Source: Rhizobiales bacterium 65-9
Lineage (GTDB): Bacteria > Pseudomonadota > Alphaproteobacteria > Rhizobiales > Beijerinckiaceae
DNA length: 64,000 nt
Direction of reading: 5' to 3'
Assembly (NCBI GenBank): GCA_001899525.1
Contig: MKVY01000029.1
Location: 112,733 to 176,732 of the forward strand
Shown: piece after piece, positions 38,455 through 41,918 of the stretch
Numbering within the stretch: the first letter of the stretch is position 1
Layout: each line of letters begins with the position of its first letter
The notes under the pieces: generated by a model
Databases searched by the model: none
Seen by the model: only the letters and a program-made list of their open reading frames with translations
Told to the model about the DNA's origin: nothing
Made by a program: the position numbers and the translations under genes

Positions 38455-39135
38455 TCATTGCAGCGCGCGAAATGAATCCGACCAGAACTGCCGCCGGTAT
38501 AGCACGAACAGCACCGCCGCCGTTCCGGCCATGAACAGCCACGGGCTCACGAACCAGCCGAGATAGCCGAGAGAGAAGAAGAACGCGCGCTGGCCCTTGT
38601 TGAAATGTCCGGCGGCGATGGCGTTGAGGCGCGCGGCGCGATCTGCGAGCTTCTCCATCTCGGGCGTTACGTCGCCCTCATATTTCGGCGCCGCGCCGAT
38701 CATGATCGCGCCATAGTTGAACAGCCGGTAGGCCCAGCCGAACTTGAAGAAGGCGTACACGAAAAACAGCGCGAGCCCGATCGTCTTCACCTCCCACAGA
38801 ACGCGGCTCGGCTTCTCGATCAGCGACGTCGCCTGAATCACGTCGAGCGCCTTTTCCGTCGCGCCGAGCAGAGTGACGCAGGCGCCGATCGCGATGAAGG
38901 AGGTCGAGGCGAAGAAGCCCGCGCCCTGCTGGAGCTGCATGTTGACCTGCATGTCGACGATGCGGTTGTCGCGCGTCAGCATCGCCCGCATCCAGCGATG
39001 GCGGTAGCCGATCATATGCGCGTTGAGGCTGCCGGCGCCGTGCGGCGCGCGGTCGATCAGGAAGGAATAGCCGAGCCACGCGATCGCGAACCATGCGAGG
39101 GCGATCATGTCGAGGCGGGAGAGATCGAGCATCAT
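38455..39135 (-). CDS. DUF599 membrane protein
   Basis: 226 aa with about 4 TM segments and HMIGYRHRWMRAM...DNRIVD motifs. Confidence 0.78.
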   Translation of the reverse strand: MMLDLSRLDMIALAWFAIAWLGYSFLIDRAPHGAGSLNAHMIGYRHRWMRAMLTRDNRIVDMQVNMQLQQGAGFFASTSFIAIGACVTLLGATEKALDVIQATSLIEKPSRVLWEVKTIGLALFFVYAFFKFGWAYRLFNYGAIMIGAAPKYEGDVTPEMEKLADRAARLNAIAAGHFNKGQRAFFFSLGYLGWFVSPWLFMAGTAAVLFVLYRRQFWSDSFRALQ

Positions 39136-39241
39136 TTGCGATCCGTGTTCAGCTCCGGCCGCACATCCTCGCCGCCGTCATGGCCGGGCCGGTCCCGGCC
39201 ATGATGCGATGAGCTTCTTGACGAAAATCTCGAATGGCCCA

Positions 39242-39460
39242 TCACTTGGTCGAAGGAGTTGCAGAACTGGGCGGAATTTCGCGGCCGAGATCGCGCGCCG
39301 CTTCGATCCACGTCTTAATCGCGTCTCGCAAGTTTGTGATCGCGTCTTCCGGGGTGTCGCCGTCGATCATGCAGCCGGGAAGGTCGGGAACGGTCGCGAG
39401 AAAATTGCCTCCATCTTCCACAGATAGCTGTGTAACAACGATAGCGCGTTGAGTGCGCAC
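39242..39460 (-). CDS. HicB-family (UPF0150) antitoxin-like protein, N-domain only
   Basis: GTG start with GGAGG 8 nt upstream. The sequence ...GGNFLATVPDLPGCMIDGDTPEDAITNLRDAIKTWIEAARDLGREIP is the characteristic HicB core. It has no RHH or HTH tail. Confidence 0.8.
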   Translation of the reverse strand: MRTQRAIVVTQLSVEDGGNFLATVPDLPGCMIDGDTPEDAITNLRDAIKTWIEAARDLGREIPPSSATPSTK

Positions 39461-39489
39461 TGTCTTCGCCTCCAGATTGCCAATAGTTC

Positions 39490-39927
39490 TCAGGAAAGCT
39501 CTTCGATAAGGTTGCGTATGCCCGATCGTGAGAAGTAGTCGAATTCGTCAATTTCTCGCATGCCTTTCCCGTGAACATTGCATATCGGGACAGATCCAAA
39601 CTTGTTTCTAAATTCGAGCAACAAGGCTCGCTCTAGTTTAATCCACGTTTTCACCTTCTGTCGTGGCTTACAGGTTATGATCCGCGCGTGAAACTCTCTA
39701 ACGCCCGACTCCGAAAGTATATTATCAGCGCGGTGAGCTACACTGGACGCTACCCGAGCGAGTCCCTGTCTTGTGGTTCCGATGTAACAAATCCGCGACT
39801 TCATCTTCCCATAACTGAACCGTTTGTCAGCGATCAAAACATAGACAAGACGGTTTTTTCCGACTGATACACGCGTCGCCCGCAGCGCGTGCTCGCGATG
39901 TAAGGATGTACGAATTCGCCGGATCAT
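39490..39927 (-). CDS. hypothetical protein, GIY-YIG-like motifs, low-GC
   Basis: 145-aa ORF in an AT-rich patch. It has LVYVLIAD...SRICYIGTTRQGLARV...ERALLLEF...PICNVHG. It ends 29 nt upstream of the HicB-like gene on the same strand. Confidence 0.65.
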   Translation of the reverse strand: MIRRIRTSLHREHALRATRVSVGKNRLVYVLIADKRFSYGKMKSRICYIGTTRQGLARVASSVAHRADNILSESGVREFHARIITCKPRQKVKTWIKLERALLLEFRNKFGSVPICNVHGKGMREIDEFDYFSRSGIRNLIEELS

Positions 39928-39971
39928 AGGCTCTCCGAAATCAAGAAGCCAATATTAGATAGTCAAGCCCC

Positions 39972-40757
39972 TCACACATGCTGCCCGCCATTGATGTGCA
40001 GCTCCGCGCCGGTGACGTAGCTCGACTGCTCGGTGCACAGGAACAGGATGGCGCGCGCCACCTCCTCGGTCTTGCCGAGCCGGTTGAGCGGCAGCGTCTC
40101 GACGATCTTCTCGGTGCCGGGCGACAGGATCGAGGTGTCGATCTCGCCGGGCGAGATCGCGTTGACGCGCACGCCCATCGGGCCGAAGTCGGAGGCCATC
40201 TCGCGCGTCAGCGCGGCGAGCGCCGCCTTCGAGGTGCCGTAGGCCGCGCCGGCGAAGGGATGCACGCGCGAGCCGGCGATCGAGGTGACGTTGACGATCG
40301 TTCCCTTGGCCGCTTTCAATTCGTCGAGCAGGCCGCGCGCCAACATGATCGGCGCGAAGAAATTCACCTGGAAGACGTTGTGCCAATCGTTGAAGGTGGT
40401 GTTGGCCGCGCCGAGCCGCTTGCCGTTCGCGCCCTTCGGCGAGATCGCGGCGTTGTTGACGAGCGCGTTCAGCTTGCCGCCTTCGGCTTTCAGCCGCTCC
40501 TTGATCTCGGCGATCCCGCGCATCGTGTCCTCGGGATCGGCGAGGTCGATCTGCACATGGTCGTCGGCGCCCGAGGGCCACGGGCATTTGTCGGAGAAGG
40601 GCTGGCGCGAGCAGGACAGGATGCGCCAGCCATTCATGGCGAAGAGCTTCACCGTCGCATGGCCGATGCCGCGCGAGGCGCCGGTCAGAAGCATCACCGG
40701 CCGCTGGCCCGGTTCGGTTTTCGGCAGCGCGGCCAGGACGTGGGGAGGAAGGGACAT
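39972..40757 (-). CDS. SDR-family oxidoreductase
   Basis: It has TGASRGIG, NNAA and the YGTSKAAL catalytic motif. The start is taken as ATG 40757. Confidence 0.88.
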   Translation of the reverse strand: MSLPPHVLAALPKTEPGQRPVMLLTGASRGIGHATVKLFAMNGWRILSCSRQPFSDKCPWPSGADDHVQIDLADPEDTMRGIAEIKERLKAEGGKLNALVNNAAISPKGANGKRLGAANTTFNDWHNVFQVNFFAPIMLARGLLDELKAAKGTIVNVTSIAGSRVHPFAGAAYGTSKAALAALTREMASDFGPMGVRVNAISPGEIDTSILSPGTEKIVETLPLNRLGKTEEVARAILFLCTEQSSYVTGAELHINGGQHV

Positions 40758-40783
40758 CGGCGTGCTCGAAAAGCGTCGGGGGC

Positions 40784-41413
40784 TTAGGGATAGAAGCGCG
40801 TCTTCTCCCACGGCGCGCCGGGCGCCGCGCGGGTGAAGATCAGCCGCTCATGCAGCCGGAAGGGCCGGTCGCGCCAGAACTCGAACGAGAGCGGCGCGAT
40901 GCGGAAGCCTTTCCAGTAGGGCGGGCGGGGAACGGCGCCCACGGCGTATTTGGCGGCGTGGAAGGCGACCGCCTTCTCGAGCGCGAACCGGCTTTCCAGC
41001 GGCCGGCTCTGCTGGCTCGCCCAGGCGCCGATGCGCGAATCGCGCGGGCGCGACTCGAAATAGGCGTCCGACTGCGCGTCGCTGACCAGGCTGACAGGCC
41101 CGCGGAAGCGCACCTGCCGGCGCAGCGACTTCCAGTGGAACAGGCCGGCGGCCTGCATGTTGGCGGCGAGCTCCCGTCCCTTCTGGCTTTCGGTGTTGGT
41201 GTAGAACACGAAGCCGTCGCGGTCCCATTCCTTCATCAGCACCATGCGCAGGTTGGGCAGCCCGTCGGCGTCGGCGGTCGCGACGGCCATGCCGTTCGGG
41301 TCGTTCGGCTCGGAGCGTTCAGCTTCCGGGAACCATGCGGCGAAGAGCGTAAACGGATCGTCGACCGCATCCTCGCCGCGCTCACCGCTTCTTAACTCTT
41401 GATTGTTTTGCAT
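40784..41413 (-). CDS. pdxH: pyridoxamine 5'-phosphate oxidase
   Basis: It has [32 protein letters not shown] and [14 protein letters not shown] motifs. Internal ATG at 41413. Confidence 0.93.
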
Positions 41414-41918
41414 GGCTTTCGAATTCGGACAGGTGGCGACGTTGGTTGCGTATATCGAAAGCAGGGCTCGCGGCCAGCGCCGTTTGCGACGGGTTCTTCT
41501 GGGCTGCGCGCTGCTCGGCGGCCTCGCCACGGCCGGCTGCAGCATCTCGCCCTTGTCTCTGTTCACTGGCGACGAGGACGACGTGCCGGTGACCGGCTCG
41601 ATCGCGTCGAAGCAGCCGTCGCCCTTGTCGAGGGCGATGACGGCCGAGGACTGGCGCCGCGCCCAGGCCGCGCTTGCGGTCGCGCTCGATCCGCAGGGCA
41701 ATGGCGCGAGCGCGGGCTGGGACAATCCAGAAACCAAGCTCAAGGGCTCGATTGCGCCGGTCGGCGCGCCCTATGTGAAGAATGATGAGGTCTGCCGCGC
41801 CTTCCTCGCGACCACGGTCACCGCGGCCGGGCAGGAATGGACGCAGGGCGACGCCTGCAAGCCGAGCGGCGGCGACTGGGCCGTGCGCGGCGCGAAACCG
41901 TGGAAGAAGCCGGCCTGA
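41412..41918 (+). CDS. lipoprotein (17-kDa surface-antigen-like), start uncertain
   Basis: The lipobox is [10 protein letters not shown]. Candidate starts are ATG 41412, a GTG, or TTG 41484, which gives [19 protein letters not shown]. Confidence 0.68.

Follow-up and report, generated by a model that had tools for sequence, protein, structure and literature searches.

An orphan hicB gene behind a foreign GIY-YIG-like gene: probable toxin-antitoxin decay and gene transfer in Rhizobiales bacterium 65-9

The genome of Rhizobiales bacterium 65-9 carries, within the 64,000-nucleotide stretch analyzed here (contig MKVY01000029.1, positions 112,733 to 176,732; hereafter the window), a gene for a protein of 145 amino acids (aa) followed on the same strand by a gene for a HicB-type antitoxin, with no hicA toxin gene at either side. 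A first-pass annotation of this DNA had offered two readings of the arrangement: either a GIY-YIG-like nuclease has become the toxin partner of HicB, or a mobile GIY-YIG-like gene has replaced hicA and left hicB as an orphan. The comparison with related genomes and with the whole family of the 145-aa protein makes us fairly confident that this is a decayed hicAB locus with a foreign gene swapped in, that is, a combination of toxin-antitoxin decay and gene transfer and not a new pair.

The SDR-DUF599 site in the window and in related genomes

Both genes map to the minus strand between two host genes of the same orientation, which can be used as anchors of the site. The upstream anchor codes for an SDR protein (39972..40757; Pfam adh_short_C2, 4.1e-50; 88-97% aa identity in relatives), with PdxH next to it according to Pfam, and the downstream one for a DUF599 protein (38455..39135; Pfam DUF599, 4.8e-61; 72-79% aa identity in relatives). 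The open reading frame (ORF) of the 145-aa protein (39490..39927) is separated by a 29-nt gap from hicB (39242..39460), which starts with a GTG codon and is preceded, 8 nt upstream, by a GGAGG ribosome-binding site (39469..39473); the two ORFs, the gap and this GGAGG-N8-GTG start had all been correctly placed in the first-pass annotation. The G+C content (GC) of positions 39461-39969 is 0.487 as compared to 0.669 for the window, with 200-nt windows of 0.46-0.53, so the AT-rich stretch noticed earlier is real, although the 40-45% GC initially estimated for it was slightly too low. The GC of third codon positions (GC3) falls into three classes: 0.88-0.92 in host genes, 0.60 in hicB and 0.53 in the 145-aa gene.

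As had been proposed, the 72-aa protein is a HicB N-terminal domain without a DNA-binding tail (PF15919 HicB_lk_antitox, 4.5e-11; PF21748 UPF0150, 3.4e-7; PHROG 497 'toxin-antitoxin system HicB-like', 2.8e-13), and belongs to a short, N-domain-only HicB subfamily that is common in Rhizobiales. The N-domain of HicB alone is described as sufficient to inhibit HicA in a paper that cites primary work on this point (PMC13621843), so the short HicB would be a complete HicA antitoxin and gives no sign of a new partner. The lack of a toxin gene also holds: none of the small ORFs at 39100-39900 matches HicA_toxin, and tblastn with the HicA partner of this HicB subfamily gives only noise across the 64 kb, with no HicA-like ORF or remnant.

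When the site is located in relatives with DUF599 as the anchor, a hicA-hicB cassette, foreign in composition, is found between SDR and DUF599 in this lineage group. The closest relative (L098; DUF599 79% identical to that of the window) contains an intact hicA of 76 aa ('...SGGSHYKVSHP...TVPFKRPIKPVYIRKL...'; HicA_toxin 5.2e-6, 26.9 bits, just under the 27-bit gathering score), which overlaps a 73-aa hicB by 14 bp. In a second relative (L184; DUF599 72%), an intact hicB follows a hicA pseudogene (553-833) with a frameshift and with the catalytic GSH motif changed to GGSRHKV, in which the catalytic His is mutated. The site is empty in Terrarubrum flagellatum (L096; DUF599 72%), in a metagenome-assembled genome of the Beijerinckiaceae (L097; 75%) and in L183 (73%), with 147, 18 and 31 bp between SDR and DUF599, respectively, whereas a further relative (L099; 76%) shows a LysE gene in between. 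The 145-aa gene is absent from the same site in L096, L097, L098, L183 and L184. This comparison of the DUF599-SDR locus, which the first-pass annotation had recommended, speaks for the second of its readings, as an intact hicA-hicB pair occupies the exact position in L098 without the 145-aa gene, and is accompanied by the hicA pseudogene of L184 and the empty site of three relatives.

A DNA alignment of the window with L098 shows full identity up to and including the SDR stop codon and one additional base (39971), no relationship over about 0.5 kb with the 145-aa gene in the window versus about 0.28 kb with hicA in L098, and homology again from near codon 5-7 of hicB. The hicA segment of about 0.28 kb is therefore replaced in the window by an AT-rich segment of about 0.5 kb (39461..39970, delimited by this alignment and by composition) with one complete gene, that of the 145-aa protein, and hicB is intact downstream of it. 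The left junction is sharp (39970/39971, one base beyond the SDR stop codon), and a five-way alignment at the hicB start places the right one between 39489 and approximately 39440. This succession of an identical SDR end, an unrelated hicA/145-aa segment and a homologous hicB indicates that hicA was displaced by the 145-aa gene. The retained HicB is 69% identical to the same-site HicB of L098 (E = 2e-32) and 68% to that of L184. In Neorhizobium and in L185, a hicA of the same type shares 4 bp with hicB, so hicA-hicB is the canonical organization for this HicB subfamily. Contigs from at least five assemblies (L086-L090) are 100% identical to the window, which points to a stable arrangement in the source organism; coming from the same organism, they were discarded as informants on the empty site.

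No recombinase, terminal repeats beyond chance, tRNA or RNA element was found at the site, and Rfam and tRNA searches were negative. In the absence of terminal repeats, recombinase or conserved flanks, illegitimate recombination would be the default route of entry. The direct repeat GCCAATA that had been reported to bracket the 145-aa gene is present (39479..39485 and 39948..39954), but barely exceeds chance when compared to shuffled short flanks (P = 0.03 for direct repeats, 0.08 for direct or inverted ones) and is missing from the junctions of L098 and L184, so it was rejected as a target-site duplication and is probably a chance match. A 9-bp inverted repeat around both genes (39213-39221 / 39941-39949) was also rejected, since the number of such repeats is close to a chance expectation of our own estimation. 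A promoter and terminator scan detected no convincing terminator in the gap that separates the two genes, and its sole promoter-like match overlaps a start codon, which makes the promoter part uninformative.

Some other features of the region and of its relatives can be recorded here. The 106-bp spacer between hicB and DUF599 has no counterpart in L098 over its whole length, and contains a perfect 11-bp inverted repeat with a 5-nt loop (TCATGGCCGGG / CCCGGCCATGA; 39178-39204), G+C-rich and without a T-run. The mechanically derived ORFs of PdxH (40784-41743, 319 aa) and SDR (39972-40811, 279 aa) extend too far at the 5′ side: in PdxH, the match to Pfam begins at residue 140, and on contig L086, which is identical, a gene caller gives 209 and 261 aa, respectively. 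L184 has a BrnT-toxin/HTH pair (2358-2983) some 0.5 kb downstream from its DUF599 gene, and in T. flagellatum (CP091851) a ParE toxin with a TraY/RHH-like antitoxin (254-734 of L096) is encoded between dnaJ and the gene of a Na/H exchanger, at a distance of a few kb from the empty site, so that the neighbourhood seems prone to toxin-antitoxin insertions. Among homologues at other places, two Neorhizobium loci (L091 and L092) keep hicA intact, whereas three loci of the Rhizobium/Agrobacterium group (L093-L095, ~2290-2500) have a degraded hicA with only the C-terminal 'IDAVRTS' readable, so that here too the toxin was lost, independently, and the antitoxin kept.

A widespread solitary gene family with a GIY-YIG-like signature

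The 145-aa protein of the window has no match in Pfam, NCBIfam, PADLOC or PHROGs. A word-seeded search recovers 54 homologues with 49-69% identity, and an exhaustive profile search 458 representatives of 50%-identity clusters (E <= 1e-3), which with few exceptions stand alone and measure about 145-150 aa. The family spans more than 15 phyla and includes one archaeon, with genome matches in Acidobacteriota, Planctomycetota, Chloroflexota, Gemmatimonadota, Bacteroidota, Verrucomicrobiota, Nitrospirota, Myxococcota, Actinomycetota, Alpha- and Gammaproteobacteria, Ignavibacteria, Margulisiibacteriota and a member of the Methanomassiliicoccales. Identities reach 69% across phyla, and values of 60-69% between phyla indicate horizontal transfer. 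In 72 out of 80 loci, the flanks of the gene are less AT-rich than the gene itself. Searches for phage relatives were negative and those for plasmid relatives gave one match, on a megaplasmid of Croceicoccus marinus (NZ_CP019604.1, 89208-89635; 45.5% identity); the alignment of this copy is broken into two parts, which carry two 'hypothetical protein' annotations, and the copy may be frameshifted. Two copies in Luteimonas abyssi (NZ_KQ759763, ~2.977-2.985 Mb; L026/L027) are part of a 6.97-kb tandem duplication, 99.5% identical, and are for that reason uninformative as delimiters of a mobile unit.

An alignment of 100 diverse members (A2) shows seven invariant residues (Y48, G50, R58, E99, F106, P114 and N117) and nine others conserved in at least 90% of them (Y29, Y39, S44, T52, G55, S62, G75, L98 and F132), together with a conserved basic stretch in the N-terminal 25 residues and two C-terminal helices. 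The hallmark of the GIY-YIG superfamily is a domain of some 100 aa that contains, besides the GIY and YIG motifs, an Arg at its centre and a Glu in its C-terminal part; it folds as three strands surrounded by three helices, and an Asn is common but not universal (PMC1564403). The residues that the first-pass annotation had picked out as the corresponding elements turn out to be the positions most conserved in the family, Y29 and Y39 being nearly invariant and the others fully so. The GIY motif would be L27-V28-Y29, with Y29 invariant in a second alignment (A1) and located in the first predicted strand, whereas the YIG motif would be Y48-I49-G50, in the second one. The Arg (R58) lies 10 residues past Y48, a spacing as in the UvrC of Escherichia coli ('IYVGKAKDLKKR', read from NC_000913), and profile alignments place it on the Arg of the UvrC segment 'YVGKAKDLKKR'. 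The Glu (E99) is found in a predicted helix (94-110), and P114-x-x-N117 is comparable to the P-R-Y-N of UvrC. The distance from E99 to N117 is 18 residues; in known GIY-YIG enzymes, 12-15 residues separate the Glu from the Asn. Y29, Y48, R58, E99 and N117 are accordingly candidate catalytic residues.

Two AlphaFold (AF2) models of high confidence (pLDDT 89.5 and 93.0; pTM 0.81 and 0.85) predict a first strand (26/27-38/39), a second strand (42/43-51/52), a helix (~55-71), a third strand (79-84/86), the helix 94-110, a loop and the C-terminal helices, and the strand-strand-helix-strand-helix order fits that of the GIY-YIG fold. The first hairpin is elongated, with the near-invariant Y39 at its tip. 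In a member-by-member Pfam scan of the 100 proteins, PF01541 (GIY-YIG) is matched by six (best 0.0022) and PF10544 (T5orf172) likewise by six (best 5.7e-5), mostly below the gathering score; these are the sole Pfam families with more than two members matched, as one other has two and the rest shown have one each. T5orf172 is itself a subfamily of GIY-YIG (PMC10448857). When the family hidden Markov model (HMM) is aligned to real domains, the UvrC N-domain obtains 5.8-5.9 bits with the motifs in register, a score reached by only 4 of 2000 shuffles (empirical p ~0.0025); YhbQ gives p = 0.06 and SegC 0.10, and Fisher's combined p over seven real domains is 0.007. One member of the family is named 'GIY-YIG nuclease family protein' by NCBI.

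Several results weigh against this assignment. The spacer between Y29 and Y48 is 19 residues long, in agreement with the first-pass remark that it exceeds the classical 10-11. The structural test suggested there, a fold search with an AlphaFold model, does not confirm the assignment: Foldseek finds nothing at E <= 0.001 with both models against the PDB and one against BFVD, and the PDB searches give no match below E = 0.1 and no GIY-YIG structure in the top 50. The window protein matches no Pfam model even at E <= 10, sequence searches of the PDB (one with the single sequence, two with profiles) yield only noise, and hhalign is not significant against UvrC (E = 0.083), YhbQ (0.35) or a seven-member reference alignment (0.029). 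The family profile scores T4 Seg and I-TevII domains no higher than shuffles.

It may thus be asked whether the motifs are a coincidence and the protein has another fold and another function. We regard this as unlikely, though still to be taken seriously. The two well-predicted models without a significant structural neighbour, whose best (insignificant) PDB matches are ferredoxin-like regulators, the long spacer, the non-significant profile comparisons and the shuffle-level scores of T4 Seg and I-TevII are all in its favour. It would, however, leave to chance the conservation of the five defining positions over 100 members, the Y-to-R distance of 10 and the P-x-x-N shared with UvrC, the concordant order of secondary structures, the UvrC score and the 12 Pfam matches to models of the GIY-YIG clan as compared to two at most for any other family; in addition, several entries of the weak BFVD list are GIY-YIG or homing endonucleases (TM ~0.4, E >= 0.1). 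Membership of the GIY-YIG superfamily is therefore probable, not demonstrated, and the replacement of hicA is unaffected by the answer. The family is probably an undescribed, widespread and mobile variant of this superfamily, with an atypically long hairpin and no structural neighbour found by Foldseek.

Genomic neighbours and origin of the arrangement

If the 145-aa protein worked with a partner, this should recur among its neighbours. Loci of the family were collected from species-representative genomes (80), from metagenomes (80) and, in several cases, by exact look-up, resulting in a non-redundant set of 142 loci at 95% identity (the window and 141 others). An all-against-all clustering of the ORFs within 3 kb of the family gene reveals no neighbour cluster present in more than three loci, and Pfam searches of the same-strand ORFs starting within 250 nt downstream (122) or ending within 250 nt upstream (116) detect no recurrent family, with HicB_lk_antitox appearing just once, in the window. 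No conserved non-coding flank or target consensus was found among 115 loci beyond duplicates of the same organism. The neighbours are of mixed nature: some are housekeeping genes (EPSP synthase, SRP54, PrmA, a tRNA synthetase), and many are related to defence, toxin-antitoxin systems or mobile elements (type I and NotI restriction-modification, DpnII/MboI, AAA_15/AAA_21, OLD-TOPRIM, DarT, reverse transcriptase, Schlafen AlbA_2, Shedu SduA_C, HEPN, Fic and a transposase). The 145-aa family is, in summary, a solitary gene without a conserved partner that occurs in variable regions of more than 15 phyla.

A local HicB HMM run on every stop-to-stop frame of 161 loci (1.07 Mb) found HicB-like ORFs near the family gene in four of them, all four among the 141 other non-redundant loci, and in none in tandem downstream. 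One locus (L016, 5302-6438) has an intact classical hicA (64 aa; 2.4e-10) and a 142-aa hicB with a C-terminal DNA-binding-like part, which end 75 bp upstream of the family gene; after the window, it is the second case of a family gene directly next to hic genes. In another (L003, 5049-5475), a hicB-like gene about 0.5 kb upstream of the family member precedes a hicA that an in-frame stop interrupts just before the catalytic 'HGSH'; this locus looks like a defence island because of an AAA_15/AAA_21 ATPase and a NotI-type restriction-modification pair downstream. A third locus (L065) has an intact hicBA in divergent orientation, and the last one (L011) a HicB-like ORF 1.5 kb downstream of the family gene. 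The co-occurrence with HicB anticipated in the first pass is thus limited to 4 of 141 loci, none of which has the arrangement of the window.

Three observations weigh against a simple history of decay with replacement. First, all four HicB-like matches lie within 2 kb of the family gene, a zone that makes up 48% of the bases scanned (P = 0.05), which suggests at most a weak tendency of the family to sit in regions rich in toxin-antitoxin genes. Second, the hicB of the window looks functional, with an intact ORF, a strong Shine-Dalgarno sequence and a ratio of non-synonymous to synonymous substitution rates (omega, dN/dS) of about 0.25, all of which would also be compatible with a function kept alongside the new neighbour. 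Rough estimates obtained with the Nei-Gojobori method from 63 codons give a branch dN of 0.156 in the window versus 0.061 and 0.066 in the sister lineages, with similar dS, and the omega of the sister branches is 0.09-0.13; at the protein level, the HicB of the window evolves about 2.5 times faster. This acceleration fits a partly relaxed constraint after the loss of the toxin, and adaptation would fit it too. Third, in a neighbour-joining tree of DUF599, the three hicB-bearing lineages group together with the empty-site lineages outside, but the internal branches are short and carry no bootstrap values, which leaves room for independent insertions at a hotspot.

This last point leads to a different history, in which the 145-aa gene and hicB would have been imported together, and independently, into an SDR-DUF599 hotspot that took up hicAB in the lineages of L098 and L184. 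The site is clearly variable, as the LysE gene of L099 indicates, the HicB of the window is the most divergent one (60% full-length identity, versus 67-75% among the other non-identical sequences), and neither the hicB-DUF599 spacer nor the HicB C-terminus is conserved with L098. The dS of hicB (1.28, 1.12 and 1.15 for the three pairs) is also far above that of DUF599 (0.49, 0.47 and 0.37). However, it is as high for the pair L098-L184 (1.15), and the ratio between both genes is constant in all three pairs (2.4-3.1), which suggests that hicB co-diverged with its hosts and that the excess stems from the gene itself, whose GC3 is unconstrained within a genome with a GC3 of 0.9, instead of being a sign of separate import. 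Moreover, the GC3 of hicB (0.60) resembles that of the L098 hicB (0.65) and not that of the 145-aa gene (0.53), no unit of the 145-aa gene plus hicB occurs elsewhere among the 161 loci scanned, and the three hicB-bearing lineages cluster in the DUF599 tree. A joint import seems accordingly improbable, and an in-situ replacement of hicA, as deduced from these sequence comparisons, is favoured.

A more speculative proposal would regard the family as a new class of minimal, self-sufficient GIY-YIG-like nuclease gene, an almost bare ORF that moves between the chromosomes of many phyla and tends to land in or beside toxin-antitoxin loci. Since the family gene lies beside hic genes in the window, L016, L003 and L065, it could have taken over in the window the slot and the expression signals of hicA, and may be restrained or regulated by HicB in a nascent hybrid toxin-antitoxin/defence module, an idea to which we give little credit, even less than to a joint import. 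Least credible of all, and not supported, is the first reading of the initial annotation, a toxin swap within the hic module leading to a 145-aa nuclease-like toxin neutralized by HicB: the operon-like linkage (same strand, 29-nt gap, strong Shine-Dalgarno sequence, no convincing terminator), the exact location of the gene in the toxin slot, the intact hicB under purifying selection (omega <1) with an acceleration that could reflect adaptation to a new partner, and the uncharacterized coding sequences in the toxin position of 49% of the orphan antitoxins of Klebsiella, deemed there candidate toxins (PMC7192599), would agree with it, but the family lives without a tandem downstream HicB, or any conserved small partner, in 141 of 141 other loci, which is not the behaviour of a toxin that needs an antitoxin, the HicB of the window is 69% identical to one paired with a canonical HicA at the same site, and no GIY-YIG/HicB pairing was found in the literature searched.

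Under the favoured history of decay and replacement, the 145-aa protein would be a stand-alone, metal-dependent endonuclease of the GIY-YIG type, whose active site would consist of Y48, R58, E99 and N117 and lie on a sheet of three strands, the first hairpin being unusually long; the basic N-terminal arm and the C-terminal helices may supply contacts to nucleic acids. It would act alone and be kept as a selfish or defensive nuclease that does not need to be restrained by HicB. On the other hand, hicB would persist as an orphan antitoxin. Selection on it would be weaker than before, though purifying still, and its transcription is probably shared with the 145-aa gene, given that no convincing terminator separates them. 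It would be either decaying or kept as an anti-addiction factor. Such an anti-addiction role has been proposed for the abundant orphan antitoxins of Klebsiella (PMC7192599). The loss of the toxin with the antitoxin kept would be the expected order of decay in a toxin-antitoxin locus.

Comparison with known systems

The 145-aa family shares with the GIY-YIG superfamily (the N-domain of UvrC/Cho, YhbQ/Slx1-like, T5orf172, I-TevI, Seg and Eco29kI-type proteins) the Tyr...Tyr-x-Gly signature, the Arg at +10, the Glu in a helix and the P-x-x-N motif, as well as the UvrC-like local alignment and the weak matches to PF01541 and PF10544. It differs in the 19-residue hairpin, the basic N-terminal 25 residues and the two C-terminal helices, and neither a curated model nor a solved GIY-YIG structure found by Foldseek captures it. 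The family is widespread and bears a GIY-YIG-like catalytic signature, yet it has neither a curated model nor a structural neighbour that could be detected. As its members often lie amid genes for restriction-modification, toxin-antitoxin systems and defence, it can reasonably be put forward as a candidate new nuclease of a selfish or defensive kind. An NCBIfam scan of the 100 members gave nothing recurrent. In PADLOC, 6 of the 100 match PDC-S14 weakly (best E = 0.0068), with single matches to two further PDC-S14 models. PDC-S14 is an uncharacterized protein of about 318 aa (PMC11719660) considered a candidate single-gene defence system, which resembles the family in these matches and in the frequent vicinity of the latter to defence or toxin-antitoxin genes; however, the window protein itself has no match, and the similarity is under any safe threshold.

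Free-standing homing endonuclease genes, such as those of the T4 seg/mob type, offer another parallel, as they are small and solitary nuclease-like genes, AT-rich with respect to the host and widely transferred, and the 145-aa gene likewise shows presence or absence between conserved flanking genes. In contrast, the family has no phage relatives among the matches and one plasmid match, no appended DNA-binding module recognizable by Pfam, no conserved target or flank among the 115 loci and no similarity to T4 Seg above chance. In the case of the type II hicAB systems, the window keeps a HicB with the partial RNase H-like N-domain, clearly recognized by Pfam, whose homologues in L098, L184, Neorhizobium and L185 lie directly 3′ of a HicA-like gene, whereas in the window hicA is found nowhere, an unrelated gene fills the toxin slot and HicB changes faster than in its sisters.

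A further likeness is to orphan antitoxins and decaying loci. Orphan antitoxins with an unrelated coding sequence in the toxin slot are common in the Klebsiella survey (PMC7192599), and in the window, as in that survey, the toxin is lost or replaced and the antitoxin remains in its original context, with the same order of decay in L184 (frameshifted hicA) and in L003 (in-frame stop). Both orphan antitoxins and toxin-first decay are already known, and the SDR-DUF599 site is a tidy example of them rather than a new principle. Nevertheless, it provides a clean natural series at one and the same place, from an empty site to hicAB, then to a hicA pseudogene with hicB and to a foreign gene with hicB, in which the toxin goes first and the antitoxin lingers, and it differs from other decaying loci in that the toxin of the window was not merely mutated, but cleanly substituted by a complete foreign gene.

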